Shown here piece after piece: positions 5,474-37,568 of a stretch of DNA of 64,000 nt. Below the pieces are notes generated by a model that was not told the DNA's origin, did no database searches, and worked only from the letters and a program-made list of their open reading frames with translations. The DNA lies in assembly GCA_001790515.1 (NCBI GenBank), contig MGCS01000002.1, positions 48,234-112,233 of the forward strand, read 5' to 3'. Each line of letters opens with the position of its first letter. The first letter of the stretch is position 1. The DNA is from Candidatus Saccharibacteria bacterium RIFCSPHIGHO2_12_FULL_44_22. GTDB taxonomy: Bacteria; Patescibacteriota; Saccharimonadia; Saccharimonadales; Saccharimonadaceae. Both the position numbers and the translations under genes were made by a program.

Positions 5474-5794
5474 AGCCCACTATATTGCTTATTGTTAAGC
5501 ATAGTATAGACGATAGCCGACCATTCAACAAGTTATTTCTGCCCACTTCCCATCAGTAGACATAAGCTTTACAAAACTTTAGCTAAAACGAGATTGAGTG
5601 CTTATTTCCGAGGTGCCGATCAATAACACTGCGATATGTATACTAAGTAAGAGTTGCACGTGAAGCATTTGCCGACTGCTTTGCCTACGTAGTTTACAAT
5701 GTGCGCCAACCAGCGACAAACTAGCCGAGGCTGTTTCGTAAAGCCATCAAAGTAAAGTTAGCTGGACAACCCCTGTAAATGATATAGTAGACAC

Positions 5795-7729: not shown

Positions 7730-9199
7730 TCAGCACTCATTCGGCGCCGGGACCCCCTTCAGTCGCTGATCCAGCCACGAAAGGAGTTCCGGAAATGCCG
7801 TGAGCGTCGCAATTGCGTGCTCCCCGAACGGCAGTCGCAACACCGAAGGTACCCCGAGCGAACATTGCTCTGCGTACAGCTCGTCGGCCATCACCTTGGG
7901 TATCCAGAACTCCTCGTTCCCATTATAGACAAACAGGGGGGTTCCATAAGCGACGCCCTGCAGCTTATTGTCGGCATAAATCTGTTGCGCCAACTCTGAC
8001 TGGAAGGGATTCTCTAGTGGCGTCAGGACTTGTAGATCGACCGGCAGTAACCCGAGCAGCGCCATTCCGACGATGCACTGATCTCGAAGTGCTGGGCCAA
8101 CCTGCAGTGCGACGTTCCCTAGCTGCGACAATATCTCGGGATATTCCCTCGATACACCCATGCCAGCGGCGACCTCCACGCCCTTCGCGGCATTGAACGT
8201 GCCGTTGAGGCTCTGAGTAAGCACGGCCATATCAATTGGCGTTCCGCCAACCGCTGCGCCGACGATAATCGGATCGCTACCGCCCAGTTCAGGTGCATAC
8301 GAATCGATTAACTTCGCGGCACCATTAGTGGCAATTGCCCCACCAGAGTAGCCTTGCATGGCCACCTTGCTGGATCCAAACTGGTCAGGCAGCAGATTCT
8401 GCATCGCCCGAATCGAATCGAGGATGATATGTCCTGCTACCTTGGTAACAGCATACGCCATCCGCGGACCTTCATGATCCGGGATCAATACGGCATAGCC
8501 TTGATTTGCAGCCCACGCGGTCACTGGTGGGATGTAATCGGTGACGCCCGTTTTCAGCGACACGCCATTTGCCATTGTGTAGCCAGGCGTACAGTCTCGC
8601 CCCAACCCGTTTATCGGCAAGTTGTTCACCAATACCGGCCTACTGCCAACGCCCGACCATGGTATCGCTGGGATCACCAGCGACGCCGTACCGAATGAGG
8701 GCTGATTCGAAGCATCATTGCTACGAAACTTCACCTGCACCACTCGTTCGACCGGTGCACCAACAAACGGTGCCGCTGTCGCCGTAATGTCACGATGCTC
8801 AATGATCTGCCCGTTGGCAAAACCCGCCAAATTGACCGGATAGTCATTGAAAAAAGCATCACGAACGTCGGACGGCATCATTGCCGCCCTAGCCCCTTGA
8901 ATGGCCACCAGATCATCGTTCTGCTGATCATCCGGTGATAGTGCAGCAACCGGCGGGATTTCTCCTGGCGGCAGGTGAAATTCCGGCTCTGGGATCACTT
9001 GATCCAGCGCCTCCGGAATTGTCGGTACTTGGTCGAGCATGCCATCGATCTGACCCTGGATTTGACTTTGAATCTGCCCCAGGTCGATCGGCGGTACAAA
9101 CGGCTGAGCGTTCGCCGAACTAGCGAACAATACACCAACCATGGCGCAACTAAATAGAACAGTACAAGCCCTGCGAACGAACGTCGTTGTTCGATGCAT
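7730..9199 (-). CDS. secreted lipase, LIP (secretory lipase) family alpha/beta hydrolase
   Basis: Signal peptide (VLFSCAMVGVLFASSANAQP), nucleophile elbow GYSGG, and overall resemblance to LIP-family lipases of high-GC Gram-positives. The gene is visibly more GC-rich than its flanks. Confidence 0.7.
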   Translation of the reverse strand: MHRTTTFVRRACTVLFSCAMVGVLFASSANAQPFVPPIDLGQIQSQIQGQIDGMLDQVPTIPEALDQVIPEPEFHLPPGEIPPVAALSPDDQQNDDLVAIQGARAAMMPSDVRDAFFNDYPVNLAGFANGQIIEHRDITATAAPFVGAPVERVVQVKFRSNDASNQPSFGTASLVIPAIPWSGVGSRPVLVNNLPINGLGRDCTPGYTMANGVSLKTGVTDYIPPVTAWAANQGYAVLIPDHEGPRMAYAVTKVAGHIILDSIRAMQNLLPDQFGSSKVAMQGYSGGAIATNGAAKLIDSYAPELGGSDPIIVGAAVGGTPIDMAVLTQSLNGTFNAAKGVEVAAGMGVSREYPEILSQLGNVALQVGPALRDQCIVGMALLGLLPVDLQVLTPLENPFQSELAQQIYADNKLQGVAYGTPLFVYNGNEEFWIPKVMADELYAEQCSLGVPSVLRLPFGEHAIATLTAFPELLSWLDQRLKGVPAPNEC

Positions 9200-21601: not shown

Positions 21602-22180
21602 TTAGTCGATTTTTTCAATTATCATATCTAGCTGAGTGGTAAACGATTGATACTGCAGCTCAAAATCTTGCCTGCCATCTATTTGAATAATGAACTCAGA
21701 AGTAGTCGGCTCTTCGATCTGTTTGCTATAGTGCCCTACAGCAGCGGTCGCCGATTCAAACGAATGGTTCGTTTGCCCATCTGCAGCGTCACGACCAGCT
21801 AACCGTTGCACTGCAACATCTACCGGCGTTTGAATGCGAACTACTATTCCCCTGCCGCCAAATCGTGATACAACATCAGCCATCTTTCTTCGTTCTTCAC
21901 GCGTGTTTGCATTACAGTCGTACACTACATCATTGCCAGATTTTATTATCTGGCCAGCAGTATAGTCCAGCGCCCCAAAAGTAAGTTGATTATTGTAGGA
22001 TCGTTCTATTGCGTCAGTGTGATGCTCTCTAATAGCAGGCAAACTACCCCACATCGAGAATCGCAGTGAATCGCTATTTAGTAAGACTGCATGTAGCGCT
22101 TCAGCAATTTGCGATGCGAAAGTAGTCTTACCCGAACCCGGCACTCCAACGAATATAACCAGAATCGGGCGTCTACTCAT
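21602..22180 (-). CDS. P-loop kinase/AAA-type ATP-binding protein
   Basis: Walker A VGVPGSGKTT at the N-terminus of a 192-aa small nucleotide-kinase-like fold. Specific function is unknown. Confidence 0.55.
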   Translation of the reverse strand: MSRRPILVIFVGVPGSGKTTFASQIAEALHAVLLNSDSLRFSMWGSLPAIREHHTDAIERSYNNQLTFGALDYTAGQIIKSGNDVVYDCNANTREERRKMADVVSRFGGRGIVVRIQTPVDVAVQRLAGRDAADGQTNHSFESATAAVGHYSKQIEEPTTSEFIIQIDGRQDFELQYQSFTTQLDMIIEKID

Positions 22181-22184
22181 ACTG

Positions 22185-24296
22185 CTATTCGACGTCTTTG
22201 ACGCTCAAACTAAGGCGTCCACGCTCATCAATCCCTGTTAGCTTCACCTTGATGATCTCGCCTTCAGTCAATACGTCTTCGACCCGCTCGACACGTTCGT
22301 CAGATAGCTGGCTGATGTGCACCATACCGTCGATACCAGGAAGAATGTTTATAAATGCGCCGAAGTCTTTGATACTTACAACCTTGCCTTCGTAGACACG
22401 GCCAACCTCTGGCTCTTCGGTAAGCCCTTTTATCCACTCGATAGCCTTGGCGATGCCCGCAGCGTCTTTACCAGCAACGGTGATCAAACCATCTTCTTTG
22501 ATGTCGATCATCGCACCCGTTTCAGCGGTAATCTTATTGATAACTTCTCCACCTTTACCAATAACTGCACCGATCTTATCTGGGTTGATTTTGATCTTTT
22601 CGATGCGTGGTGCAAATTCGCTCAGATGTGTTCGTGGTGCGGCAAGCGTCGTTAACATATGCGCTAAGATATGTGCGCGACCTGGCTTTGATTTTGCGAG
22701 TGCTTCGCGAAGAATTTCAACAGGCAGGCCATGAACTTTCATGTCCATCTGAATTGCAGTGATTCCTTCGGACGTACCCGTCACCTTGAAGTCCATATCT
22801 CCCGCGAAATCTTCAGCGTCGGCAATATCACTCAGTACATATGGCGTACCATTGTCCATCATCAATCCCATGGCAATGCCCGACACAGGTCGTTTGAGTG
22901 GCACACCGGCATCCATCAATGCCAAAACCGAGCTACATGTTGCCGCCATCGACGTACTACCATTTTGACTCATAATTTCTGTGACGCTACGGATAGCATA
23001 CGGGAATTCTTCTTCGGTTGGCAACATCGGTAGAACAGCGCGCTCCGCAAGGTATCCGTGACCGATTTCTCGACGACCAGCACCACCTAGTCGACGGACT
23101 TCACCAACGGTATAACCTGGCGCATTGTAGTGATGCATGTATCGGCGTTCGTAGTCGTCTTGTTCCATTGTGTCGACCATTTGCGCATAACTAAGTGGCG
23201 CTAATGTCACGATATTCAGGCCTTGCGTCACACCACGCGTAAAGATACTCGATCCGTGTGTTCGTGGCAGCACGCCTACTTCGCTTGAAAGCGTACGAAT
23301 CTCGTCGAGCTTACGACCATCAGGACGTGTGCCGCTATCGACAATACCGTTACGGACATCTTTATGAAGCGCCATGGTAAATGCTTCATCGTATTCATCA
23401 TGAAGTGCTTCGTAGTCGTCGCCAAACTTCTCGCGAAGATCGGCGTGGAATGCCCAACGAAGATTGTTGACCATTTCGTTACGTTCCGGGTACGGATGAT
23501 GGAGCGCATCGCCTAGTTTTCCTTCAACCCACGAATCAACAGTCTGTTGAATTTCTTCATTCGGTAGAACTAATGTGAATTCTTGTTCGACAGGCGCAAC
23601 CTTTTCTGCTAATTCTTTTTGCAGTGCGATTGCTGGCTGATATTGTGCGTATGCCCATTCCAATGCATCGCCTACTAATTCTTCGCTGACTTCATTTGCT
23701 CCAGCTTCGACCATAGTAATACCACTTTCGATACCAGCAACGACCAAGTCCAGGTCGCTTTCGTTGCGTTCTTCTGGTGATAAGAAAGCTTTAAATTCAC
23801 CGTTGACACGACCGATACGAAGCCCTGCAACAGGTCCATCAAATGGCGTGCCAGTTAGCGACAGTGCTGCACTCGCTGCGATCATCGCAATCATGTCAGG
23901 ACGAAAGTTTGGATCCATCGACAAGACGCTCGTCACTACCTGAACCTCTTGGCGATAACCTTTTGGAAATAGGGGGCGAATTGGACGATCAATTAATCGG
24001 CCGATCAAAATCGCCTCGTCGCTCGGGCGACCTTCGCGTTTGATGAATCGACTGCCGCTGATTTTGCCAGCTGCATAAAACTTTTCTTCGTAATCGATAG
24101 ACAGCGGGAAATAATCGAGTACGACAGGACGCGATCCAACCATTGCCGTGCCCAAAACGACCGTATCGCCATAGCGAACCATGACGCTGGCGGTAGTGCG
24201 AAAGCCGAGTCGGTTTACTTCTAGTGTTAGTGTTTTGCCGGCAAGCTCAGTACTGACGCTAATAATTTCTTTGCCATGAGGGTTGATAGTAGACAT
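22185..24296 (-). CDS. pnp: polyribonucleotide nucleotidyltransferase (PNPase)
   Basis: Two RNase PH-like halves followed by C-terminal KH (IGAVIGKGGEVINKI) and S1 (GRVYEGKVVSIKDFGAFI) domains. I prefer the ATG at 24296, preceded by GGAGAG. Confidence 0.95.
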   Translation of the reverse strand: MSTINPHGKEIISVSTELAGKTLTLEVNRLGFRTTASVMVRYGDTVVLGTAMVGSRPVVLDYFPLSIDYEEKFYAAGKISGSRFIKREGRPSDEAILIGRLIDRPIRPLFPKGYRQEVQVVTSVLSMDPNFRPDMIAMIAASAALSLTGTPFDGPVAGLRIGRVNGEFKAFLSPEERNESDLDLVVAGIESGITMVEAGANEVSEELVGDALEWAYAQYQPAIALQKELAEKVAPVEQEFTLVLPNEEIQQTVDSWVEGKLGDALHHPYPERNEMVNNLRWAFHADLREKFGDDYEALHDEYDEAFTMALHKDVRNGIVDSGTRPDGRKLDEIRTLSSEVGVLPRTHGSSIFTRGVTQGLNIVTLAPLSYAQMVDTMEQDDYERRYMHHYNAPGYTVGEVRRLGGAGRREIGHGYLAERAVLPMLPTEEEFPYAIRSVTEIMSQNGSTSMAATCSSVLALMDAGVPLKRPVSGIAMGLMMDNGTPYVLSDIADAEDFAGDMDFKVTGTSEGITAIQMDMKVHGLPVEILREALAKSKPGRAHILAHMLTTLAAPRTHLSEFAPRIEKIKINPDKIGAVIGKGGEVINKITAETGAMIDIKEDGLITVAGKDAAGIAKAIEWIKGLTEEPEVGRVYEGKVVSIKDFGAFINILPGIDGMVHISQLSDERVERVEDVLTEGEIIKVKLTGIDERGRLSLSVKDVE

Positions 24297-25328: not shown

Positions 25329-25770
25329 CTATCCAATATCGCGACGACGAAAATTGAGCCATGAAATAAGTAATGCGAGTAATGTAATAGTACTCAGTAC
25401 CGCAATATCTTCCCAGCGAGCACCGGTCTTTGCAATATCGACTGCCGGGAAATAGTAGAATAGTGACGCCATTTCGTAATTTTGCAACCAATCGACTCCT
25501 GCACTAAATGTCGTCAGTATGAAACTTCCGACGACAACTAATATACCTAGTCCCGTTGCGACTGCGCGATTACCTATGCCAATCGCCAGACTGAACACGA
25601 TTGTCCCAAGCGTCACTAACAGCAACCAGGTCATTGCAATAAGCCGCCACAGTACTGCATTGTCAATTGATTCGTCGATAGTTATTTGCATCACATAAAT
25701 TGAACCGGCACAGGCAACAACGGTAGTCGTAATGACCGTCACCATCGCTAACCATTTTTGAATAAATAAT
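25329..25770 (-). pseudogene. ABC-2 type transporter permease, C-terminal half (gene split by the 25771..37207 insertion)
   Basis: Hydrophobic polytopic ORF whose frame continues the N-terminal half at 37208..37568. Removing the element and one copy of the 8-bp duplication restores ...SRTKLFIQKWLAM... Confidence 0.8.
25763..25770. repeat. 8-bp target-site duplication, left copy (TAAATAAT)
   Basis: Identical octamer at 37208..37215, immediately outside the two terminal inverted repeats. Confidence 0.8.
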
Positions 25771-25795
25771 GGCACTTATATACTTTATAAACCCA
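25771..25795. repeat. left terminal inverted repeat (GGCACTTATATACTTTATAAACCCA)
   Basis: Its first 15 nt are identical to the reverse complement of 37193..37207. There are two mismatches in the next 10 nt. Confidence 0.8.
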
Positions 25796-25837
25796 ACTAG
25801 ATAAACAGAAGTATGTGGAGATAAAAAAATAGCTGAA

Positions 25838-25999
25838 CTACTTGGTCTTTTTCTTCAGCCTTTTACTACGAGCTACGATTTCTTTATTACTAATTGGTGG
25901 TGTGTTTACCATAGCCTTAATAACCCGAGCAAACTCCGGATTGTCACGCTCAAACTTCTTTAGATGTTCAACCACTGGCTTCGGTTTCTTATTCGTCAT
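25838..25999 (-). CDS. small basic protein (53 aa), unknown function
   Basis: Hand-translated ORF below the track cutoff: MTNKKPKPVVEHLKKFERDNPEFARVIKAMVNTPPISNKEIVARSKRLKKKTK. A TATACT box lies 6 nt upstream of the ATG. I recognise no family. Confidence 0.3.
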   Translation of the reverse strand: MTNKKPKPVVEHLKKFERDNPEFARVIKAMVNTPPISNKEIVARSKRLKKKTK

Positions 26000-26119
26000 A
26001 GTCCAAGTATAGCAAAAACAAATGTTCCTTTACATCACGCTATTGCTTGCCTTTTTTAGAGCGAGATGGTTACATCACATCAGAGGTGACTCACGAGGTA
26101 GTCACCGTGGGGAATAGCT

Positions 26120-28753
26120 ATGGACTCAGACAACGCCTATATAACCGTCCTCAATGCCTTACCACAGGTATACATCAGCGTGTTCGTAGCTCTGGTCGGT
26201 ACCATCATTGTCATTGCCGTTATCTACCCAATTCTTGCGCTATTGCCGTTTTTGCGAGCTCGCTCCCAAGACACTGTGTATCTTGCCGTCACACCACCCT
26301 CATTTAGTCACAAAACGCCCCTCGCCACAGAACAACTCAGCCGTATGCTTCAGAGCCTGCTTGCCAGCCGCACTCTCAAAGAGCGCTTGCTGCTCCGTCA
26401 CCGCATCGCCTCACTTGAACTCATCTCCACCCGTGCGGACGGTATTCGCTACATCTTTTGTCTGCCACGAGAAGACGCACCGATCTTCACCCAACAACTC
26501 ACCGCGTACTTGCCAGATGTTACCGTCACGGAAGTACCTGACCCACTGGAAAAACTGCACCATAGTCCGCAGCTGTTCGTCAAAGAGTTCAAACAAGCTC
26601 GCCACTATGCCTATCCGTTAGCAGCGAATGAAACCTTATCCCAGCACGATCCTATTGCCTACATTAGCAGCGCCATGACCCGCCCCTTACCTGGAGAGCA
26701 GGTTGTCTACCAACTGGTACTGTCGGCAACGCAGCCACGTTCGGTCAACAGGATCCGGAACAAACTGGCACTCGGGCAAGATCCGAACCTCTACAGCGCG
26801 GCACTACCACTCCCAGTGCGCATCTTGTTTTGGCTCATCCGCCTGCCATTCGCCATCTTTACGTTTGTCTTTGGTGTGGTCGGTGAAATGCTTTCACCCA
26901 GCTACCGTTCACCAAAGTACCAACAGGCCCAGTACCAAAAGCAGCCACCCGCCTACCTGCAAACTCCTGCCACCCAAGATCTGTTCTCCAAGTTCAGTGA
27001 CAAACTCGCTCAACCACTGTTTCGGGTAAGTATCCGGGCAGTGGTGGCCAGTGATGACACCCATACCGCTAAACAGACCATGCTCGGAATCTCGTCGGCT
27101 ATGGCGTCGTACCATGTCCCGGGTTACCAGGCACTCGTCAGGAAACGCACACTACCTGGTGGGCTGCACGCAAGGTACCGAATCTTCTGTCTGACACACC
27201 GGTTGCCGTCACCATTCCGGTCGCACGACTCGGTCCTGTCAGTCTCCGAAGTGGCCAGTCTCTACCACTTTCCATATGGCCAGACGAACAGAACGGAGGG
27301 CGTAGCCCAGTCACTCAGCAGCACCTTACCCGCACCGCTGGCCCTCAAGCAGCACGCCGATGCAGCTGACTTTGACGTTGTCCTTGGCGTCAACAAACAC
27401 CATGGGCAGAACACGCCCATTGGTCTGACCGAATCCGAACGCCAACGTCACCTCTACCTTATTGGTGGGACCGGTAACGGCAAGACCACACTGCTGGAAT
27501 ATGGCCTTATCCAGGACATCCAGGCCGGGAAAGGTGTTGCCCTGATCGATCCTCACGGTGACTCGGCTCAAAAGCTCCTGCGGTATATTCCAAAGAACCG
27601 CATGAAGGATGTTATCTATCTTAATCCCCGTGATTTGGATTACCCAATTGGCCTCAACTTACTGGAAATACCGAAGAACCTCACCGGTACCGATCTTAAA
27701 CACGAAAAAGACCTTATCGCTGAAGCCGTGGTGTCGGTACTACGGAAGATCTTTGACGACGCCAGCGGTGCTAATGCCTACCGGATTGAACGGGTACTAC
27801 GAAATGCTATCTACACGGCCTTTACCGTACCAGATGCCACCCTGTTTACGGTCTTACGCCTGCTAGCGGATAACACCTACCGCAAGCAGGTGACCAGAAG
27901 CCTGGACGATGAAAGCCTGAAGCGCTTCTGGAAAGAGGAACTCGGTAAAGCTGGTGACTTCCAACGGGTGAAAATGAGCAGCGGGCCAATCTCCCGGATA
28001 GAGCGGTTTGAACGCAGTGAGTCAGCCCGACGGATGCTGGGGCAAACAACATCCACCATTTCTTTTGATGACATCGTCAATACCAACAAGATCCTTATTT
28101 GCAACTTCAGCAAAGGACGCTTAGGTGAAGATACCTCCACGCTATTTGGGACAACCGTCCTGGCGAAGCTGCAGCTGGCTGCCTGGCGGCGCGACAACAT
28201 ACCCGAAGCCGAGCGCACGCCATTTTACTTGTACGTCGATGAATTCCAGAACTTTGCCAGTGACCATTTCATGAGTCTGTTCTCTGAAGCTCGGAAGTAC
28301 AAGCTGTTTCTGACGATGGCACAGCAGTCGGTCGCGCAGCTCAAAGAGCAGGGTATGGTGACGAACATCTTAGATAACGTTGGTACCCTGATTGTCTTCC
28401 GCTCTAAGAGTCCGGATACCGAACGCTTGGTGCTGCACCAGCTCAAACCTTATGTCGAACCAGGCCAGATTACTAATTTACCGGCTTACCATTTTTATAT
28501 GAAGGTGGCAGCTGTCGAGCCGCAGGAGCCGCTGACGGGTGAGACGTTACTCCCTGACACGAATGGCAATGAGCTGATGGCGAAGAAAGTGATTGCGTTG
28601 TCGCGGGAGTTGTGGGGGCGGGAGTATGTTGAGGAGGAAGAACCGAAAGAAAGACCCCAACAACAAACACAGAAAAAGAGGCCAAAGTCTACTACGGCGA
28701 AAAGGACAGCAACAAAGACTAAGCCGGTCAACAGCAAAGGGCTGCCGAAATAG
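26120..28753 (+). CDS. type IV secretion coupling protein-like ATPase (TraD/TraG/VirD4-like), membrane anchored
   Basis: N-terminal TM hairpin, Walker A LIGGTGNGKTT, DPHGD segment, Walker B-like FYLYVDEFQNF, and a basic C-terminal tail. Confidence 0.7.
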   Translation: MDSDNAYITVLNALPQVYISVFVALVGTIIVIAVIYPILALLPFLRARSQDTVYLAVTPPSFSHKTPLATEQLSRMLQSLLASRTLKERLLLRHRIASLELISTRADGIRYIFCLPREDAPIFTQQLTAYLPDVTVTEVPDPLEKLHHSPQLFVKEFKQARHYAYPLAANETLSQHDPIAYISSAMTRPLPGEQVVYQLVLSATQPRSVNRIRNKLALGQDPNLYSAALPLPVRILFWLIRLPFAIFTFVFGVVGEMLSPSYRSPKYQQAQYQKQPPAYLQTPATQDLFSKFSDKLAQPLFRVSIRAVVASDDTHTAKQTMLGISSAMASYHVPGYQALVRKRTLPGGLHARYRIFCLTHRLPSPFRSHDSVLSVSEVASLYHFPYGQTNRTEGVAQSLSSTLPAPLALKQHADAADFDVVLGVNKHHGQNTPIGLTESERQRHLYLIGGTGNGKTTLLEYGLIQDIQAGKGVALIDPHGDSAQKLLRYIPKNRMKDVIYLNPRDLDYPIGLNLLEIPKNLTGTDLKHEKDLIAEAVVSVLRKIFDDASGANAYRIERVLRNAIYTAFTVPDATLFTVLRLLADNTYRKQVTRSLDDESLKRFWKEELGKAGDFQRVKMSSGPISRIERFERSESARRMLGQTTSTISFDDIVNTNKILICNFSKGRLGEDTSTLFGTTVLAKLQLAAWRRDNIPEAERTPFYLYVDEFQNFASDHFMSLFSEARKYKLFLTMAQQSVAQLKEQGMVTNILDNVGTLIVFRSKSPDTERLVLHQLKPYVEPGQITNLPAYHFYMKVAAVEPQEPLTGETLLPDTNGNELMAKKVIALSRELWGREYVEEEEPKERPQQQTQKKRPKSTTAKRTATKTKPVNSKGLPK

Positions 28754-28809
28754 CCAAGTATGCAGATATATCAGCTAGTTTAAATTCTACTTTCGTGCGA
28801 GTTTTCACT

Positions 28810-28845
28810 CTACCGCTCGCCCTACCGTTCGCTCTACCAATAGCC
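28810..28845. repeat. three tandem 12-bp iteron-like repeats
   Basis: CTACCGCTCGCC / CTACCGTTCGCT / CTACCAATAGCC, head to tail, 57 nt after the T4CP-like gene. Confidence 0.5.
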
Positions 28846-29163
28846 GGTATATCAGTCAGTCACTTTCACCCCTGTTCTTGGCGTCTCACCCGAACCCGAC
28901 TCTTTACGTGTGTCACTATCATTTTTACATACTGCCATTGCGCCCTGTTGGGTTGCTACTTCAGGGACGTTGTTCGTGTAGGTGAGTAGATAAAGCAACT
29001 ACCTCACCCAATATTGTTGCTCAGTTTACCCCACAGTTACAGCACCGTAAATTTGCTACGTGCTTTTCCCTGCAACATCTGGCTCCATGGGAATCTATTC
29101 GTTACTGCCTTTTAAGAGTGGGTCTGACTGTTCTTGGGGTACGTGTTTTATGTCGTTCCTAGT

Positions 29164-30081
29164 TCATCCCACCGCCAAGTAGGCAGCCAGCGTGTGGTTG
29201 GCATGGCGGTCGAGATTCTTGCGAGCCAGGTCATAGCGGTAGGTCGTACGGGGGTCTTCGTGACGGGCACCAGCCTGGACGTCACGCAGTGGCACACCGG
29301 CATCGAGACTGTTCGTGACGTAGGAGTTGCGCAGCAAGTGCGGGTGGACATGCTTGGTGATCCCGGCTCGCTTGGCGAGGGCTTTGACCCAGCGGGCGGC
29401 TGTACGACGGTCGAGTTGTTCTCCACTGGCTCGGCGCAGCAATGAACCACGAGTACGGCCATCGGCAGCATCCCTGAGTGCCAGGTAGACCGACGGGGGC
29501 AATGGTAGGGTTGCGGGCTTGTCGCCCTTCCCCATGATCGACAGCGTCCGGTGGCCTTGAATCTGGCGGTCATGGAAGTCCTCAATCTGGACGTTGCAGG
29601 CCTCTGACACCCGCAGTCCGCACATCGCCATGAGCACGACTAGAGCGTAGCGGGTGGGGTCGGTAGCCCGAGCCTGCTGCAACAGTGCCCCGACTTCATA
29701 CCGATCGAGACCGATCTTCTTCATGTCGTCGACCCATACCTTAGGTAGGCGGACGTGACGAGCCGGGTTGCGGGTAATGAGTTCATCGATCTCGCAGTAG
29801 TCATAGAATGTCTTTACAACATTAAGCCGATGGGCCACTGTCGAGGGGCCGTTGTGGCGGATCTCTTCGAGGTGTCGGCCAAACAACTCAACGTGCACCC
29901 GCTTCACGTCGACCAAGGGGCGTAACTGGTGGTCAAGACACCACCGAACAAAGATCCGCAGGTCGATCTCATACAGGGTGCGGGTGTTGAGATTGCCGTA
30001 GCGAGACAAGAATCCCGCGACCGCCAGGTAGGTGGCATCGTGAGGTGCGACTAGCGTGGAGTCTCCGAAAGGAGTATGCAT
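29164..30081 (-). CDS. tyrosine-type site-specific recombinase/integrase (high GC)
   Basis: Catalytic signature R (GLRVSEA), HxxR (HPHLLRNS), H (ARHEDPRT) and Y (TYRY). I prefer the ATG at 30081 because GC content falls sharply upstream of it. Confidence 0.9.
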   Translation of the reverse strand: MHTPFGDSTLVAPHDATYLAVAGFLSRYGNLNTRTLYEIDLRIFVRWCLDHQLRPLVDVKRVHVELFGRHLEEIRHNGPSTVAHRLNVVKTFYDYCEIDELITRNPARHVRLPKVWVDDMKKIGLDRYEVGALLQQARATDPTRYALVVLMAMCGLRVSEACNVQIEDFHDRQIQGHRTLSIMGKGDKPATLPLPPSVYLALRDAADGRTRGSLLRRASGEQLDRRTAARWVKALAKRAGITKHVHPHLLRNSYVTNSLDAGVPLRDVQAGARHEDPRTTYRYDLARKNLDRHANHTLAAYLAVG

Positions 30082-30318
30082 GAGGGCTTTAAGCCTCCTC
30101 AGTGAGAATCCGGTAATAGTGAATAGAGCCAGCAAGACTCTGTTTTTAAAAAGTGCTCTTTGAATACCTCTCTCTGTATCTACCCACTTCACATAGGCCC
30201 CTCTCTAGGGGTTTGAGGTAGGTACTTAAGTCAAGATACTAGCAGAGGTGGAGCGATCTGCGCTACAGGCTTTCCACACGAAGGTGTAGCGACTGTGGTG
30301 CTTACCGTGCGGAGTGGG

Positions 30319-31773
30319 TCAGAGCCCAGCGGCGGTGAGGTTGGTGACGGTGACCTGCCCGATGCCCTGCTTGGTGCCGACGCCCCCGCCGACCATGAGC
30401 ATCTGCATCCGGTAGACGTAGTCCGCCTGCACGGGGCACACGAACTCGTGAACGATGGTTCCGAGCGGCACGGACTGCTGGGTGTTGAGGTAGCAGAAGG
30501 TGGGGGGGCCGCCGTCCGTCTGTCCGAGCCGCACGACCGCTTGAGTGGGAGCCGTGCCCACGACGGTGAGGAAGTACTTGCATTCCACGCGGTACCGGTT
30601 CCCGGGGATGAATGCCTCTGTGAGCGGCACGACTCCGCTTGTGCTCACCCCGCCGTCCACGGTCTGCGTGACCGTGAACATCTTCCCGACCACGCCAGCC
30701 ACGGTCTCGACGGCGGTGCTCGCAGAGCCGTAGCCGAGCGAGGTCCAGTCCTCGGGCACGAAGCCGCTCTTGACCAGCAGGAGCGGCTTATTGATGAGGT
30801 CGGCCGGAGAGGGCTGCGCGACGGCGAGCGTAGACACGTCAGGCCAGACGGCGGACACCGCGGCGCCGAACGCGAGGCCGACTGCGCGCGCCCCGGCCGC
30901 ATTCCAGTGGGTGCCGTCGCTGTTGAAGGCGGCAGCAATGTAGCCGGTGGCAGGATCGACCACGGCGGCGTAGTTGTCCACGAACAGGTAGCCGCGCTCG
31001 CGGGCCGTGATGCGCTTCCACCGATTGAGGCGCTGGACGTCGGCCGTCGAGGCGGTCGAGGGCGGGATGGAGCAGACGATGACCTTGATCCCGGCGTCGT
31101 CGAAGGCGTCGTACATCGCGGTCAGGGCGGCGATCTGCTGGGCGAGGTTGCCCACGTTGTTCGTGCCGAGCGCGTCCACGGCGGCGTAGGGCGCGGCGGC
31201 GATCACCCCGGCGAGGAAGTTCGTGTTCCACTGCGCGGGCGTGATGGAGGGCGTCGCAGCATGTACGGCGATGTGGTACCGCCCGCCGGCGGCGAGCGTG
31301 GCCCAGCCGACCCAAGAGTGGTTCTCGCAGGGGATGAGCGGGGCGGTCAGGAGGTTGTAGACCCCGACGCCGCCCGCGCCAGTGACGCCGGCCGCGCTGT
31401 TGGAGTCGCCACAGATCGCGAGGCCGCGACTTCCGGCCGGGGACAGGAGGGCGAGTGGGGCGGCTGTCGCAGTCTCGACCCCCTCGGCAATCGTGGCCGA
31501 AAGGGCACCTGCCGTAGCACTAGTATTGTCGTTTATTTTTGCGGCAGTCTGGGTATCCAGGTCAGTGGTATTAAGTTTGGCAGTGAGTGCAGAGGCATCG
31601 GCCTTAGTGGTAAGGGTGTTTTGGATTGAGGTGAGGTCACTTGTAAGGTTTGTTATCTTAGCTTGAGGTATGTCTTTAAGAGTGCCATCGGTTTCGTGAG
31701 CTTGCGATAGGTAGTCATTGAGGATATCTCCCCAATTGCCGTTGTCTCCTCCTGGTTTTGGTAATCTAGCCAT
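30319..31773 (-). CDS. fibre-family protein: conserved MARLP N-terminal module fused to an SGNH/GDSL hydrolase and a C-terminal beta-sandwich-like domain
   Basis: N-terminus MARLPKPGGDNGNWGDILNDYLSQ is shared with four other ORFs. SGNH blocks are CGDSNS, DALGTNN and SDGTHWN. A sharp GC shift lies near 31500 inside the ORF. Confidence 0.75.
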   Translation of the reverse strand: MARLPKPGGDNGNWGDILNDYLSQAHETDGTLKDIPQAKITNLTSDLTSIQNTLTTKADASALTAKLNTTDLDTQTAAKINDNTSATAGALSATIAEGVETATAAPLALLSPAGSRGLAICGDSNSAAGVTGAGGVGVYNLLTAPLIPCENHSWVGWATLAAGGRYHIAVHAATPSITPAQWNTNFLAGVIAAAPYAAVDALGTNNVGNLAQQIAALTAMYDAFDDAGIKVIVCSIPPSTASTADVQRLNRWKRITARERGYLFVDNYAAVVDPATGYIAAAFNSDGTHWNAAGARAVGLAFGAAVSAVWPDVSTLAVAQPSPADLINKPLLLVKSGFVPEDWTSLGYGSASTAVETVAGVVGKMFTVTQTVDGGVSTSGVVPLTEAFIPGNRYRVECKYFLTVVGTAPTQAVVRLGQTDGGPPTFCYLNTQQSVPLGTIVHEFVCPVQADYVYRMQMLMVGGGVGTKQGIGQVTVTNLTAAGL

Positions 31774-31856
31774 GTCTTTGTTTAAACTCTACAATACTCT
31801 CACGTATGTGTGTTATATAAGTGCTTATGTATACGAGTATTAGGGATGTGGGTTTA

Positions 31857-31880
31857 ATTGTCAAGGGAAAGTTTGACAAT
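31857..31880. promoter_or_regulatory. palindromic operator-like site upstream of the island fibre gene
   Basis: ATTGTCAA-N8-TTGACAAT, perfect 8-bp arms, about 85-105 nt upstream of the ATG at 31773. Confidence 0.35.
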
Positions 31881-32217
31881 CAAGAGAGATAAAGTCGTAA
31901 AAGCGTTATACGTACGTTTCATTCGCAGAAAAACAGCCTTCTTGTCAAGATAAACTGGCTAGAAAGCTAGGATGAACGACGGACAGAACGGGCAGGTTCA
32001 TTACGTTGTCATACTGCTTCGGGCTGCTTCGGATGAGTACGCACGCGGTAGTTAGTGTAACAGTAAGAGGTAATAAAATAAAAAGAGCATATCTCAAAAC
32101 AAGGATAATCCAATCCCCTCTACTTCCACTATACGCCTTACGCTTACATAGCGGTAGATGCCGTAGTGCCAGGCTGGGTAGATCACTATAATTTGTATAG
32201 GAAGGGAGGGAAAATAT

Positions 32218-34401
32218 ATGAAGTGGAATAGTAACATAACGCAGGAGGTGTATTGGCAACAAATACACTGGCCTAGCAAAGTGGAGCCAGACGATGCTCT
32301 GCAACTGTTTCGGCATATCGCCGCTGACCACCGTGACCGGGTGGTCGTGTTTGAGGTTCGCAGTGGTACTGACGGTCTTGTCAATTTTTTGGTCGGATGT
32401 GCACGCGGATACATGCCGTATATAAAGCAGCTTATTGAAAGCCATGTCGATGGCACCTTTGTGACATCGCCAACCATCCGTCGCCGTCCCGTTACAACAG
32501 CGCATACGCTGAAGCTAACCAATAAGACGAGGCCGCTGCGCGTGGCCCACTCCAAACTAACCGCTAAATCAATATTGGCAGCCATCGCAGGGGTGAATCC
32601 TCCCGAGCACGCTACACTGCAACTTGTACTCGGTGGCCGGATTCGGCCTGTGGCCGTCCCGACTAGGACGCAGGAAAGTGCCCTCATGCCCTGGTGGCAG
32701 CGAGTACTGTCGACGGATGGCGCGCTTCGGGTTGACCGTGAAAAACGAACGGCCTACCGGGTAAAAGTAGCGGCACCCGGGTTTCGCTGTGCGCTGCGTA
32801 TTGGGATCAGTACGCCGGATAAAGCTCGCCAGACTGACCTGTGCTTGGATCTCGTGGCGGGTGCCAGAACGGCTGAGACCCGCAGTGCCTATGTGAGCGT
32901 CCGGCGGCTCCTTCGGAACAAACGCTTCGATAGTCCGTCGCGGCTACCATACCTAGGCTCCATGCAGCTGAATATTAACGAGCTGCTTGGCTTGTCAGCC
33001 TGGCCACTTGGCAGTGACACCATGCCGGGCCTTAATCGGCGCGGCTTTCGCCTCTTGTACGCTGATCAGACGATCGAGTCGTCGACACGGATTATTGCCC
33101 GCTCCACCGCACCGGGCGATAAGCGTCTACTCGGGCTGAACATCGAAGACGCGCTTCACCACCTCCATGTCCTCGGCCCGACTGGTGTTGGCAAAAGCAC
33201 GCTGCTGCTTAACCTCGCCTGCCAGGACATTGTGGCTGGACACGGGGTCGTTGTGATTGACCCCAAAGGTGATCTGGTCAAAGATATTCTGCGCCGAATT
33301 CCGTCTGAGCGACGTGACGATGTTATTGTGATCGATCCCGCTGATATGACAGCGCCCGTTGGCCTGAACCCGCTGCGGGGGACGGCGGCTGATGAGAAAG
33401 CGGATGTTATTGCTGATCACCTCCTGGCTGTATTCCATGGCTTATATAAGGATGCCTGGGGGCCGCGGACGCAGGATATTCTGCATGCCAGTTTACTGAC
33501 CCTTGCCCTGCAGGAGCATAGTAGCTTGGTGATGTTGCCAGCGCTGCTTACCGACCCCTATTTTCGTCGCAGCTTTGTCGACGAACTGCATGACCCGATT
33601 GCTCTCGAACCATTCTGGCGCTGGTACGAACAGTTGTCACCAGGCGAGCAGCAACAAGCGATTGCTCCGGTGATGAATAAGCTCCGGGCTTTTCTGCTAC
33701 GGCCCCAAGTTCGGGGCGTGATTGGACAAGTACAGCCTCGTTTTACACTCGACGAAGTTTTTAACGGCCAGAAAATTCTGCTCGTCTCCCTCGCCAAAGG
33801 ACTCATCGGTAGCGAGGCGGCGGCCTTACTTGGGTCACTGGTCGTGGCTCAGATTCGTCAGGCTACCCTGGCGCGGGCAGCCCTGCCGAGTGAGGCTCGA
33901 CGTCCGATCACGGTTTTTATTGATGAGTTCCAAGATTATATGCACTAGCCGGATGACCTCGCCGATGTATTAGCCCAAGCTCGCGGCCTTGGTGTGGCGA
34001 TGACGCTCGCCCACCAGCACCTTGACCAACTGACGCCTGCCATGCGGATGGCTGTGTTGGCGAATGCTCGCTCGCGGGTGTGTTTCCAGCTGTCGGCAGC
34101 CGATGCCAGCGTCATCGCTCATACCAGTGACTTACTCCAGCCAGAAGATTTTATAAAGCTGGGCCGCTACGAGGTCTATGCCAGTTTGGTCGGCAACGGT
34201 CAAGTCAGGCCATTTGCCTCTGGCAAAACTTTGGCCTCGCCACCAGTGCTAGGAAGTCACCGACAACTACGCCTCGCTAGCCGGGAGCGCTACGGGCAAT
34301 CCATGGCAGACAGCGAGCTGCGCCTCCTTGAACAGATACAGCCACAACCAACCTATGAGCTCCTTGGGCGTCGCTTACGCTCGACGAAGGAGGCAGCATG
34401 A
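32218..34401 (+). pseudogene. type IV secretion coupling protein-like ATPase interrupted by an in-frame TAG (33946..33948)
   Basis: ORFs 32218..33948 and 33994..34401 are in the same frame. Walker A is LGPTGVGKST, with DPKGD and Walker B-like VFIDEFQDY just before the TAG. The continuation PDDLADVLAQARGLGVAMTLAHQH aligns with the paralogue at 26120. Confidence 0.75.
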
Positions 34402-35243
34402 AACATGATGTCGTGCATCGAACGGAGGCCTCCTTTTCTGCGCGCGATCAGGCGATACTGAGGCGACTGGCCGAGCATCGCTACCTCACCTCTCGGCAGA
34501 TTGAGCGCTTCTTCTTTACTCGCCACCATAGTCCAGCCTCGGCCGCACGGTCGTGTCGCCGCGTCCTGGCACGTTTATATGAGCAACATCTTGTGACGCG
34601 CCTGTCAGTCCGGGCTATTGGCGGCTGGGCAGCGGGTTCAACCGGCTATACCTACCGTCTAGCCCGCCCGGGCTACGAAGCCCTGACGCTGCGGCCAAAT
34701 AATACCGTCACTCGCTCGCCGCTGTTTTTAGAACATACCTTAGCGATTGCAGATGTCAGGCTGGCACTGGAGCAGCTGGCTCGGGCGCAGCGGCTCCAGT
34801 TAGTGGGCGTCGATACGGAACCGAATAACTGGGTATACTATGGCAGTTTCGGGGTGCGCGAAGTCCTGAAGCCCGATCTGTTTGTGGTGACTGCCACCTC
34901 ACCAGAGAGTGACTATGAGGACACCTGGTTTATTGAGCTTGACCGAGCCACCAGTAGCCTGAACGCTGTCCTCCAGAAATGTCGACAATACATTTCGTAT
35001 CGCTTGAGCAGCGAGGCCCGGGCTCGTCCTGGTGGTTTCCCAATTGTTGTCTGGCTGGTGCCAACGAGACGCAGGCAGCGTGAAGTGCAACAGATAACTC
35101 AAAAGTTGCCCCTCTCTCAGCGCGATATTTTTCGAGTTGTACTGAGGCAACAGTTCGCGGCCTACCTGTCTGCGTACTATTCTCTCGGACAGGTTGCGCT
35201 GCAAGCTTCGAACCATCCGAGCATAGCTCGAAGGAGAGTTTGA
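34398..35243 (+). CDS. replication-relaxation family protein
   Basis: Family-typical N-terminus (RDQAILRRLAEHRYLTSRQIERFFF), a central HTLAIADVRLAL, and the KPDLFVV...WFIELDRATSS block. Its start overlaps the upstream stop (ATGA). Confidence 0.7.
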   Translation: MKHDVVHRTEASFSARDQAILRRLAEHRYLTSRQIERFFFTRHHSPASAARSCRRVLARLYEQHLVTRLSVRAIGGWAAGSTGYTYRLARPGYEALTLRPNNTVTRSPLFLEHTLAIADVRLALEQLARAQRLQLVGVDTEPNNWVYYGSFGVREVLKPDLFVVTATSPESDYEDTWFIELDRATSSLNAVLQKCRQYISYRLSSEARARPGGFPIVVWLVPTRRRQREVQQITQKLPLSQRDIFRVVLRQQFAAYLSAYYSLGQVALQASNHPSIARRRV

Positions 35244-35244
35244 A

Positions 35245-35262
35245 TTTTCCTTTAGAGGAAAA
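35245..35262. terminator. short bidirectional hairpin between convergent replication-relaxation genes
   Basis: TTTTCCT-TTAG-AGGAAAA, a 7-bp stem flanked by A/T runs. Confidence 0.4.
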
Positions 35263-35279
35263 ATCAAACTACGGATAGG

Positions 35280-36014
35280 TTATTTAGGAAGCAGGGTTTT
35301 AAACTGGACATCATCACTCCAGGCGTCATCCAGTATTTTTGTGACCCACTTGTCTACTTTTGCCTTCAGTCGCTCATCACGACATAGTAGCAGTACTGTT
35401 GGGTAGAGTGCCTCAGTCGTCCAATTGTCGTTATCGTACCAATCTACATGTTTCGTAATAGTCTTTCTCATGACCGAATCTGGCATCGTCCCATCAAAGC
35501 ATTCCACGAAGTAATGGGTGCGTTCTTTCGTCTTAGCATTTTCAGTAAAGGCATAGCCGTCAGGCAGCGCCTGAGGAAATAACTCATTACCAGCATAGTC
35601 ACTCCTGGTTCTAAACTGGAGTTGTGTGTGTTCTGTACCATAGAGCCCACTCAGCTGCACACTGGCTGCGAGAACACTTAAGCAATGCCGAATAAATCTG
35701 TCGCTGGCATTGCTGTCTTTCGCGAGCAGCTTTAATAGCTTGGTATCATAAACATTGTCCGTCTTTAGCGCATCAATACCTTTAGGAAGTAGATGGTAGG
35801 CGGCTGGTTTGCCAAGTAACTTATAGCTACTGTCATAGCGTTTCCCTATATATTCCTGTTCAGTAAGTATCCGTAATCTTTCATGAATATAGCGACGACT
35901 AGTAGTGCCTGTAGATTGAGTAAAAAGAGCTGTAGTACCGAACCGAAAGCGAGCAAGAAGTCTGAGTATGTCAAGTTGGTGATGGTTGAGTTGTTTGCGA
36001 TTGCTAGAGTGCAT
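35280..36014 (-). CDS. replication-relaxation family protein (second, AT-richer copy)
   Basis: Same layout as 34398..35243: HHQLDILRLLARFRFGTTALF, IRHCLSVLAASVQL, and LPDGYAF...HYFVECFDGTMP. Confidence 0.6.
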   Translation of the reverse strand: MHSSNRKQLNHHQLDILRLLARFRFGTTALFTQSTGTTSRRYIHERLRILTEQEYIGKRYDSSYKLLGKPAAYHLLPKGIDALKTDNVYDTKLLKLLAKDSNASDRFIRHCLSVLAASVQLSGLYGTEHTQLQFRTRSDYAGNELFPQALPDGYAFTENAKTKERTHYFVECFDGTMPDSVMRKTITKHVDWYDNDNWTTEALYPTVLLLCRDERLKAKVDKWVTKILDDAWSDDVQFKTLLPK

Positions 36015-36141
36015 AGAGAAGAGAAAAGTAAGAGTTAAGAGTAGTATTAGTATGTATTATATAGTAAAGCGACTAAATACAATACATGTAACAGATTGAA
36101 TGAAGCTTGTTAACATTCCAACCGGTAGGAATACTAGCTAT

Positions 36142-37158
36142 CTAACTAATCTCAGGAAACAAATCATCACCAGGCAACATAATCCGCTTAAATTGCGGCT
36201 TACTTGGCTTCAGTTTGACGATTTTCTTAGGTCGTTTCTTACCCTCAATGAGGGTTTTGTAGGTAATGTGCCCCGTTGAATACTGGAACCAGTCAGTAAA
36301 GCGCTGCCCATCGTCTTGATCACGGTGATTGTACCTGAACGCAAACTCGGCACAGTATTTTTGTAAATGCTTTTTACTGACGCCAACGTAGATAGCGGAG
36401 AGCGATAGCTTGAAGTGTGCCCAGCTACCTTCTAAGGCATTAGTGCTGATATTGTCGCGAACATACTCACCGCCCGCGTGGTCAACACGCTGACTATCGT
36501 AACCGAGTCTATCTATACTACGATATGGTTGGTAGTTGTCACTCATGACAGTGCTGCCTGGCGTAATATTTTCAGTGATAAGTTTGTGCATAGTTACAGT
36601 ATCTGTGTAGTTCGTGGTGACAAGACGGAGATCACCTTTGCGCTCTAACATACCCACAACCGGTGCTTTGGTGTACATACTACCGCGACCTTGCGTCCCC
36701 TCACTGCGTTTGTTGGCGTGTTTGTTCTTTTCTTTGCCACCAATATACGTTTCATCTATTTCAACGATTGCTGCGAGTAATCCTTTATTACTCGATACTT
36801 CAATACCGTTACGAATACGCTGCAGCATGAACCAAGCGGTCTTTTGAGTAATCTCGAGGTATTTTGCGAGCTGAATGGAGCTAATACCTTTCTTGAGCGA
36901 GGTATTCAGGAATACGGCCCAGAACCATTTGTACAGCGGAACATGACTACCCTCGAAGATTGTGCCAACCGTAGCTGTGAACTGCTTACGGCACGCTGCA
37001 CATTTATACAGTTTCTTATTAGCGAATTGATACGTCTTCATATTACCGCAATGTGGACAGGCGCGTCGTTCGTAATTCTCACCCCAGCGTTGTAGCTCCA
37101 AGAAGGCAATACATACCTCGTCGTTCGGAAACTGTTGCTGTATGGTGAAGATGTTCAT
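36142..37158 (-). CDS. IS1595-family (ISXO2-like) transposase
   Basis: N-terminal zinc ribbon (CPHCGN...CAACRKQF) and a catalytic core with EIDETYIGG, MSDNYQPY and TNALEGSW. The ATG lies 35 nt inside the right inverted repeat. Confidence 0.9.
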   Translation of the reverse strand: MNIFTIQQQFPNDEVCIAFLELQRWGENYERRACPHCGNMKTYQFANKKLYKCAACRKQFTATVGTIFEGSHVPLYKWFWAVFLNTSLKKGISSIQLAKYLEITQKTAWFMLQRIRNGIEVSSNKGLLAAIVEIDETYIGGKEKNKHANKRSEGTQGRGSMYTKAPVVGMLERKGDLRLVTTNYTDTVTMHKLITENITPGSTVMSDNYQPYRSIDRLGYDSQRVDHAGGEYVRDNISTNALEGSWAHFKLSLSAIYVGVSKKHLQKYCAEFAFRYNHRDQDDGQRFTDWFQYSTGHITYKTLIEGKKRPKKIVKLKPSKPQFKRIMLPGDDLFPEIS

Positions 37159-37182
37159 ACTTACAGTATACTACCCCTGTTA

Positions 37183-37207
37183 TGGGTTTGTCAAGTATAT
37201 AAGTGCC
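37183..37207. repeat. right terminal inverted repeat
   Basis: TGGGTTTGTCAAGTATATAAGTGCC is the reverse complement of the left repeat with two mismatches. Confidence 0.8.
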
Positions 37208-37215
37208 TAAATAAT
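37208..37215. repeat. 8-bp target-site duplication, right copy (TAAATAAT)
   Basis: Identical to 25763..25770. Confidence 0.8.
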
Positions 37216-37568
37216 TTAGTTCGACTGATCGGGAGCGACAGGAGTGTTCGTGTTTGTCCTGCCTCTTCTTCGGCGGCTGTCAGACCTAACGCCAAAATAA
37301 TCACCATAACACTACCAATTATCGTAACGCGAATATCGAATAGCTGCGACGCAAGATACGTCGAAAACTGTTGTAGATTCGACAGATCTCCCACTAATCC
37401 CTGAAACGCTGGCGGCATTGTTTTTACTAATTGATCCAGCGATCCGTCTTGATGCATTGCTGGATAAAATGTCACCATCAGCGCAGCCAAAGCTGCGAAT
37501 CCAATCATCCAGCCAAGTATAAACCATCGTTTGTCGTTGATTGTTTTCGAAAACACGCTCGTCATCAT
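37208..37568 (-). pseudogene. ABC-2 type transporter permease, N-terminal half (gene split by the insertion)
   Basis: Its start overlaps the stop of the ABC ATPase gene. The ORF reads into the inverted repeat and stops 5 codons later (RHLYT*). Confidence 0.8.

Follow-up and report, generated by a model that had tools for sequence, protein, structure and literature searches.

An IS1595-type unit transposon of 11.4 kb with relaxase-like and coupling-protein genes in Saccharibacteria: a candidate integrative mobilizable element

Elements known as tIS, in which an IS1595-type transposase and its terminal repeats carry extra genes, stand at the border of insertion sequence and transposon; the concept is reportedly that of Siguier, Gagnevin and Chandler in 2009. 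The described passengers of tIS are one or a few accessory genes, and the elements measure a few kilobases. In a 2017 review, exactly two systems are listed as IS1595-type integrative mobilizable elements (IMEs), MTnSag1 (tISSag10) of Streptococcus agalactiae and tISCpe8 of Clostridium perfringens, both of which end in 25-bp repeats, generate 8-bp duplications at AT-rich targets, and have a circular form, their excision being thought replicative (PMC5704250). Here, we analyze an 11,437-bp insertion from the chromosome of a groundwater bacterium, Candidatus Saccharibacteria bacterium RIFCSPHIGHO2_12_FULL_44_22, situated in a window of 64,000 nucleotides (contig MGCS01000002.1), to which all coordinates refer unless another locus is named. 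The element shares with MTnSag1 and tISCpe8 the IS1595 transposase, 25-bp repeats, 8-bp duplication, AT-rich targets, and passenger DNA inside the repeats. For these two elements, it has been proposed that a conjugative system mobilizes them once a circle has formed, and we make the same proposal for the present one. However, MTnSag1 and tISCpe8 are 1.7–2.0 kb long and carry a lincosamide resistance gene only, without a relaxase or a coupling protein, their origin of transfer (oriT) being thought fortuitous, whereas the element described here measures 11.4 kb (5.9–13.6 kb in its siblings), encodes relaxase-like and coupling proteins and a small open reading frame (ORF) named orf53, has a swappable cargo slot, and resides in Patescibacteria.

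Two other groups of systems are comparable. TnGBS, an integrative and conjugative element (ICE), likewise is conjugation-related, integrates by means of a DDE transposase rather than by site-specific recombination, and has a VirD4-type coupling protein. TnGBS is self-transmissible, with a full secretion system and a transposase of a different family. The chromosomal type IV secretion clusters of Patescibacteria encode many coupling proteins (in Saccharimonadales, 47–50% identical to T4CP-A, the coupling protein of the element), but they differ in having VirB2, VirB3, VirB4, and VirB6 and in lacking a transposase and terminal repeats. These clusters are regarded as non-mobile and probably non-conjugative (PMC12102498), and a survey of Patescibacteria genomes counted 5713 coupling-protein genes vs. 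109 relaxases. Passenger-carrying IS1595 elements, IS1595-type IMEs, and the module of a PF13814 (Replic_Relax) protein with a VirD4 protein are already known. In the searchable literature, we found neither a tIS in which a relaxase-like gene is conserved alongside a coupling protein and a modular slot, nor a DDE-transposon IME combining its own relaxase-like and coupling proteins with orf53 and such a slot; nor did we find there IS1595-type IMEs in the 6–14 kb size range or in a Patescibacteria host. So far, the element represents an undescribed IS1595 lineage in Saccharibacteria/Patescibacteria.

All claimed repeats, duplications, and sizes were re-counted on the sequence. The insert (25771–37207) is bounded by two perfect copies of the 8-bp target duplication TAAATAAT, exactly as in an earlier reading made from the sequence alone (hereafter, the sequence-only reading). 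Removal of the insert together with one copy of the duplication yields a 795-nt permease ORF that reads through the junction (...SRTKLF followed by IQKWLAM...). The rejoined 264-aa protein is aligned with the Pfam family ABC2_membrane_2 from residue 20 to 262, over positions 20–282 of the 283 in the profile, at 45 bits; by itself, the N-terminal half scores 27 bits, and the C-terminal half has no Pfam match. Uninterrupted permeases of the same length were found in related metagenome contigs (loci L141, L142, and L143) in the gene order ABC ATPase, permease, polynucleotide phosphorylase (PNPase); in L141, the permease is 54% identical over residues 1–263 and the PNPase is 81% identical. Hence, the proposal that the halves belong to one ABC-2 permease holds, and the uninterrupted allele sought in related genomes exists there in a syntenic position. 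In the same strain, an exact-protein look-up of the neighboring ATPase revealed no empty site: 12 of 12 contigs with identical neighbor genes carry the insertion and are 99.8–100% identical to the window. The surroundings are formed by chromosomal genes (those of PilM, FtsK, YchF, RNase J, PNPase, and DNA polymerase III delta), and the insertion has inactivated an ABC-2 exporter of the strain.

The outer tip of the far repeat (25771–25775, GTGCC on the minus strand) supplies an in-frame GTG start, and for this reason the C-terminal half of the permease is called as an "intact" 148-aa ORF (to 25775); this call is no evidence for expression of the fragment. The intactness of both halves had been taken as a sign of a recent event. 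Recent movement does fit the existence of two identical copies of the element (see below), but the permease halves give no date, as the available copies of the site all come from one near-clonal population.

The 25-nt terminal inverted repeats agree at 23 positions, in accordance with the earlier count, and their outermost 15 nt match throughout. When up to two mismatches are allowed, the repeat 15-mer occurs at two places only in 64 kb, compared with 0.07 expected by chance. The two mismatches are explained by transcription of the transposase gene: repeat positions 14–19 read TTGACA at the near end, forming the −35 box of a strong promoter-like site, and TTTATA at the far end, in every family case (the distal variant was seen also at the distal ends of L017, L090, L019, and L139). 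The transposase matches DDE_Tnp_IS1595 (PF12762; 9.3e-38, 130 bits, cutoff 27), Zn_ribbon_IS1595 (PF12760; 7.5e-13, an N-terminal zinc ribbon at residues 11–59), and the NCBIfam model transpos_IS1595 (NF033547; 177 bits, cutoff 75). Its candidate catalytic residues are D135, D207, E243, and K250, and the ratio of nonsynonymous to synonymous divergence (dN/dS) is 0.06 vs. its 97% identical homolog P0001. The DDE domain, the zinc ribbon, the short repeats with an 8-bp duplication, and the occurrence at several sites assign the element to the IS1595 family. The transposase gene does lie near the right end, although not at the 35 nt given previously: its ATG lies 24 nt inward of the 25-nt repeat and 49 nt from the tip, the former figure being the distance from the 15-nt perfect part. 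A search of the window for the repeat with mismatches confirmed that no second left end follows the transposase stop codon, because the far end of the element consists of the repeat and the family-wide 53-aa ORF.

Table 1. Features of the element and its insertion site, ordered by position in the 64-kb window.
Feature	Position	Strand	Basis or remark
ABC-2 permease, C-terminal half	25329..25770	-	final 8 nt form the left duplication copy
Target-site duplication TAAATAAT, left copy	25763..25770	.	re-count on sequence
Distal terminal inverted repeat GGCACTTATATACTTTATAAACCCA	25771..25795	+	re-count on sequence
orf53, lysine-rich, 53 aa, adjoining the distal repeat	25838..25999	-	conserved in all family members
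T4CP-A, VirD4/TrwB-type coupling protein, 877 aa, intact	26120..28753	+	Pfam, profile search
Variable cargo slot, 6,457 bp, 57% GC, between convergent T4CP-A and RR-A	28754..35210	.	comparison with L139
Tyrosine recombinase, XerC/D-like, 342 aa	29164..30192	-	Pfam, PHROG
SGNH/GDSL hydrolase, 484 aa, 65% GC	30319..31773	-	Pfam, PHROG
T4CP-B, second coupling-protein gene, with in-frame TAG	32218..34401	+	frame check, homolog P0246
RR-B, Replic_Relax protein, 281 aa, candidate MOB_C-type relaxase	34398..35243	+	PF13814, 4.3e-33
Conserved 3' region of RR-A with hairpin AGTTTGAATTTTCC...GGAAAAATCAAACT, right slot edge	35211..35279	.	sibling comparison
RR-A, Replic_Relax protein, 244 aa, candidate MOB_C-type relaxase, family core	35280..36014	-	PF13814
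Palindrome ATTCCAACCGGTAGGAAT, 18 nt, between transposase stop and RR-A start	36115..36132	.	sibling comparison
IS1595-family DDE transposase, 338 aa	36142..37158	-	Pfam, NCBIfam
Promoter-like site of the transposase, TTGACA-18-TATACT	37165..37194	-	11/12 matches
Transposase-proximal terminal inverted repeat GGCACTTATATACTTGACAAACCCA	37183..37207	-	window carries the reverse complement of GGCACTTATATACTTGACAAACCCA
Target-site duplication TAAATAAT, right copy	37208..37215	.	re-count on sequence
ABC-2 permease, N-terminal half	37208..37568	-	ORF extends 6 codons into the repeat, up to 37191

Compared in silico, copies at other sites show that the entire 11.4 kb, by all appearances, transposes as a unit, with two 25-nt repeats, a DDE transposase, and AT-rich 8-bp targets. 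Firstly, an 11,467-bp contig (L156; Logan SRR22387915_135190) contains the entire 11,437-bp element with 0 mismatches next to a different left flank of 30 nt, unrelated to the permease (...GGTTCTATTTATAAT) and having TTTATAAT as its last letters. The contig breaks off precisely at the near-repeat tip, which is typical for a de Bruijn assembler at a repeat boundary. Secondly, siblings with the same two end variants have their own 8-bp duplications. They include L013/L139 (GCA_020049755.1; 13,609 bp, perfect duplication TAAATATA, transposase 97% identical, its transposase end also present at a second site with 99.85% identity), L017 (5942 bp, perfect duplication AAAAAATA), and L090 (5934 bp, perfect duplication TGTATATA), the latter two being 99.3% identical at full length and situated in different genomes at different sites. 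A remoter sibling, L147/L148, has the repeat variant GGCAATTATGCGCTTAACACACCCA and an 80% identical coupling protein, and is found with two different flanks at 99.7% identity. The targets are all AT-rich: TAAATAAT, TAAATATA, TATAAATA, AAAAAATA, TGTATATA, and TTTATAAT. With seven non-transposase genes inside the repeats and the unit present at a second site, the element qualifies as a tIS or unit transposon. Of the two histories offered by the sequence-only reading, these copies directly support transposition of the whole 11.4 kb as a passenger-carrying IS1595 derivative.

A scan of 596 Gb of genome contigs with the 15-nt repeat core gave 119 matches, nearly all of them random, and re-screening these with the 25-mer retained L062, L070, L075, L090, L125, and L134. 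The exact 25-nt repeat was absent from viral contigs, where relatives of the transposase are at most 62% identical and one, L160, has no recognizable far repeat. Locus L019 was considered as an intact unit and rejected: its repeats are 6.6 kb apart, but the flanking 8-mers mismatch (TATTCATA vs. AACGCGTA), which suggests a rearranged or two-event structure. The interval (L019 9953–16598) encloses a transposase (75% identical), ornithine carbamoyltransferase, a nitroreductase, a radical SAM enzyme, an ATP-grasp enzyme, and a Replic_Relax (RR) gene.

The conservation of orf53 beside the far repeat and the position of the RR gene downstream of the transposase define the family core as repeat, transposase, RR gene, cargo, orf53, repeat. 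The RR gene follows the transposase in the window and in L013, L147, L017, and L090. A sequence profile of RR proteins matches the genes of L017 and L090, which were not used in building it, at 1e-53 to 1e-79, and it finds an RR gene in 1 of 119 unrelated loci. The small protein encoded by orf53 is 92% identical in L139, 65% in L017 and L090, and 52% in L019, and has no Pfam, NCBIfam, or PHROG match. RR-A, the RR protein of the core in the window, exceeds the PF13814 cutoff (1.2e-09, 39 bits, cutoff 25.3) and also matches phrog_9381; its single-sequence AlphaFold2 model (pLDDT, the predicted local distance difference test, 47.8) was unusable and was not taken to a fold search.

In the window, L013, L147, and, in decayed form, L145, a coupling protein facing the RR gene is added to the core, with a variable segment between the two. 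T4CP-A has a Walker A motif (GGTGNGKT, residue 449), a Walker B motif (DEFQ, 707–710), and matches to TraG-D_C (1e-07) and TrwB_AAD_bind (3.5e-07). A profile of the coupling-protein family finds TrwB (1e9r, 3.9e-10) and DotL (6sz9) in PDB, whereas PDB searches with the single sequences of T4CP-A and RR-B gave nothing significant.

The edges of the variable segment are sharp. Homology between the window and L139 ends at 28752, in the stop codon of T4CP-A, and returns at 35211, approximately 70 nt past the RR-A stop codon; the region 35211–35279 is common to L139, L145, and L149 despite different DNA to its left. Between these edges, L139 contains 8.6 kb including a DEAD-box helicase gene, L147 contains 8.4 kb including genes for a Lon-like ATPase and a Fic protein, and L145 contains 4.2 kb of small metabolic genes. 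The Fic-domain protein (L147 20232–20831) matches the PADLOC defense candidate PDC-S04 at 4.6e-61, and the adjoining Lon-like AAA protein has weak BrxL similarity. It was the only strong match of PADLOC on the cargo of siblings, the others being weak helicase and Lon similarities. In view of this match, the slot may carry anti-phage genes.

Synonymous divergence of the window from L013/L139 is 0.17–0.19 in the transposase and orf53 genes vs. 1.1 in those of T4CP-A and RR-A; hence, exchange or sharing of the end modules is of much later date than that of the transfer genes. The backbone is a mosaic, which implies recombination that swaps end modules or transfer genes among elements. At the same time, dN/dS is 0.05 for T4CP-A (vs. 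its sibling homolog), 0.10 for RR-A, and 0.19 for orf53, so that, with the transposase value given above, all four backbone genes lie within 0.05–0.19 and are therefore kept functional.

The siblings L017 (9953–15894) and L090 (1535–7468) carry a diversity-generating retroelement. In each, the 3' end of a 461/476-aa gene is formed by a 177-nt repeat that has a second copy downstream, near a reverse-transcriptase gene (element coordinates about 3700–3877 and 5328–5504), and all mismatches between the copies (16 in L017, 24 in L090) fall on adenines of the template copy. The variable copies differ between L017 and L090, which points to retroelement activity after transposition.

Two independent insertions of the family (L139 9619–9672 and L090 1461–1559) are located 29 and 74 nt from the start codon of resident Replic_Relax genes, outside the elements and just upstream of these genes. 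Given the rarity of RR genes among the unrelated loci, this suggests a target preference of the family for regions upstream of RR genes, or for other mobile elements.

We consider it probable that the element is, in addition to a tIS unit transposon, an IME that uses a resident type IV secretion system; its structure is observed directly, while transfer is predicted from homology. The transposase would make a circular copy, as proposed for IS1595 relatives such as MTnSag1. RR-A, as a candidate member of the MOB_C relaxase class with the PD-(D/E)XK fold, would nick the circle at an oriT, for which the conserved palindrome preceding the RR-A gene is a candidate. T4CP-A would then pass the DNA to a type IV secretion system resident in Patescibacteria, and in the recipient the transposase would insert the element at an AT-rich 8-mer. 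The palindrome is identical in L139 and L013, and in L147 it is retained with a paired change (ATTCT...AGAAT), which makes it a candidate oriT or operator.

The element can be compared with an IME feature by feature. Its own integration enzyme is represented by an intact transposase under purifying selection that has left insertion footprints. RR-A and RR-B (a second RR protein, encoded in the slot) both score above the PF13814 cutoff and are candidate relaxases by family membership. The coupling protein, optional in IMEs, is identified by the domains, Walker motifs, and TrwB profile match of T4CP-A. PF13814 is listed as the MobC relaxase superfamily, and streptococcal IMEs with PF13814 proteins carry a VirD4-type coupling protein (PMC5357655, PMC12479173); the family has been assigned to the PD-(D/E)XK fold. 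No VirB4 or channel genes were found among the eight genes of the element, VirB4 models reaching 27 bits against a cutoff of 643.

A possible partner system is exemplified by the Saccharimonadales locus L170 (DASTXH010000031.1, 2476–12625), where genes for VirB2, VirB6, PrgI (VirB3), VirB4, and a CHAP protein are directly followed by a coupling protein 49% identical to T4CP-A, with a convergent RR gene about 9 kb downstream (21914–22625). This order of coupling protein, cargo, and convergent RR gene is the same as in the element. The layout of L170 is ICE-like, and its RR gene matches PF13814 only weakly, so that this relaxase candidate might escape standard relaxase scans. In each of the eight Patescibacteria modules examined, a small and non-random sample, no more than 10 kb separated the coupling protein from an RR gene. 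In IMG/VR, a match to the RR profile directly downstream of the coupling protein was seen in three of nine distant loci with 25–28% identity (L175, L178, and L179); hence, the module of a coupling protein and a Replic_Relax protein seems to be widespread beyond Patescibacteria.

Several points weigh against mobilization. All statements about conjugation follow from homology and gene order, and the second site of the element rests on a 30-nt flank in a k = 31 assembly. The type IV system of Patescibacteria has been argued to serve non-conjugative purposes, and its t4cp gene was not essential in the one strain tested (PMC12102498). No type IV secretion system is encoded within the 64-kb window. 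The oriT is assigned from a single conserved palindrome, whose role could also be that of a terminator or operator. Finally, the RR core is also present in members without a coupling protein (L017, L090, and L019), and RR proteins could instead act in replicating a circular form or in transposition as such.

The last point leads to an alternative that we consider unlikely, namely, that the element is a non-conjugative unit transposon, in which the RR protein acts in replication of the circle or in transposition and the coupling ATPase is cargo used for import of DNA or other macromolecules. Besides the coupling-protein-free siblings, where the RR gene still follows the transposase, it is favored by the PHROG and Pfam names, which include replication initiation, by the low number of canonical relaxases in genomes of the Candidate Phyla Radiation, and by the proposed non-conjugative role of the type IV system (PMC12102498). 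However, the combination of a coupling protein with a PF13814 protein is a recognized mobilization module of streptococcal IMEs (PMC5357655, PMC12479173), and this pair occurs twice within the element and again beside the full VirB cluster of L170. Moreover, most mobilizable elements have a relaxase without a coupling protein, so the siblings that lack the latter fit mobilization too.

The center of the element, i.e., the content of the slot, has a history of its own. Its GC content, 57.2%, exceeds that of T4CP-A (53.2%), of the DNA outside the element (45.8%), and of the right arm (43.8%). The center contains four genes. The tyrosine recombinase matches Phage_integrase (1.8e-22) and the integrases of phrog_1 (4e-37), while the XerD model scores 115 bits, below its cutoff. 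The hydrolase matches Lipase_GDSL_2 (7e-10) and the lipase group phrog_6102, and resembles hydrolases of Gordonia and Rhodococcus phages at 31% identity (2e-19 for the Gordonia phage genes annotated as "hydrolase"). In public gene calls, a plus-strand ORF without a Pfam domain (30295–31629, 443/444 aa) overlaps it; given the GDSL/SGNH domain and the phage homologs, the minus-strand ORF is more likely to be the real gene, and the presence of long ORFs on both strands is explained by the 65% GC of this stretch.

The second coupling-protein gene, T4CP-B, encodes a product 28% identical to T4CP-A and is interrupted by a TAG codon (33946–33948) that separates ORFs of 576 and 135 aa in the same frame. 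The codon is present in all contigs of the strain, whereas the homolog P0246 (727 aa, 96% identical) is intact; judging from the frame, T4CP-B is inactivated by this single stop codon. RR-B resembles phrog_9381, "replication initiation by nicking" (2.6e-17); it had no tblastn match in plasmids and no BLAST alignment with RR-A, although both belong to PF13814. The DNA of T4CP-B and RR-B is 90% identical to L149, where it again meets a convergent RR gene and which shares with the window the 58-nt hairpin region 35211–35268. Remoter homologs of T4CP-B (48–50%) are found in genomes of Mycobacteriales, Frankiaceae, and Jatrophihabitantaceae.

With an integrase, a coupling protein, and a PF13814 protein, the central segment looks like a second, classic mobilizable module. 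The streptococcal IMEs, which also combine Replic_Relax and VirD4-family proteins without VirB4, are closer to this segment than to the backbone of the element. As a tyrosine-recombinase IME, however, the segment lacks two features: direct repeats of the att type at its edges, where no shared core of 9 nt or more was found, and intact mobilization genes, given the TAG codon in T4CP-B. A 14/17 match at the edges was examined as an att repeat and treated as chance. The entry route of a central module with no att repeats at its edges is a further point that weighs against our preferred reading.

These observations bear on the other history suggested by the sequence-only reading, that about 10 kb of foreign DNA entered later between the transposase and the left repeat. 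The element present first would then be a plain IS1595 of approximately 1.4 kb, and the 11.4 kb would not form a mobile unit. The deviating GC content of the center, its own integrase, and its absence from siblings, which have other cargo there, agree with this scenario. On the other hand, the complete element including the center stands beside a different flank in L156, so that the segment was already in place at the last transposition; T4CP-A, RR-A, and orf53 are conserved within the repeats of siblings elsewhere; and no cargo-free copy of the lineage was seen. Later insertion thus survives only as the history of the central 6457 bp; for the element as a whole it is already contradicted, and we regard it as quite improbable.

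A self-transmissible ICE or a composite transposon of two IS copies is very improbable and already contradicted by the gene content. The large size, conjugation-type genes, and terminal inverted repeats would suit them, but there are no VirB4 or channel genes for the former, and for the latter only one transposase gene is present, the far end consisting of the 25-nt repeat and orf53. With a metagenome-derived genome, an assembly artefact might be feared in which a mobile element and the chromosome were fused into a chimeric contig, but it can practically be dismissed, since both junctions recur at 99.8–100% identity in more than 12 contigs from different samples (ENA, JGI, NCBI, Logan) and a chimera would not produce a perfect duplication and a restored reading frame.

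Elsewhere in the window, a secretory lipase gene (7730–9199; Pfam LIP, 5e-38) forms a patch of 56% GC in a genome of about 46% GC and may have been horizontally acquired.

On this recently mobile element, a coupling protein is paired with a putative nuclease of the relaxase class, and strong purifying selection acts on both. The pair provides a concrete and testable candidate for DNA transfer and is relevant to the debated question of whether the widespread type IV system of Patescibacteria ever mediates conjugation. A broader interpretation, possible but tentative, is that Patescibacteria do conjugate, that RR/PF13814 proteins are the "very different relaxases yet to be found," and that IS1595 transposons are vehicles moving over the type IV system with cargo such as defense candidates, diversity-generating retroelements, and metabolic operons. 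With this family, IS1595-type mobilizable elements are no longer limited to 2-kb resistance carriers but reach 6–14 kb and have a conserved core and a swappable slot. Being active in Saccharibacteria and tolerating more than 10 kb of cargo, the transposon could also become a genetic tool for this tool-poor group.

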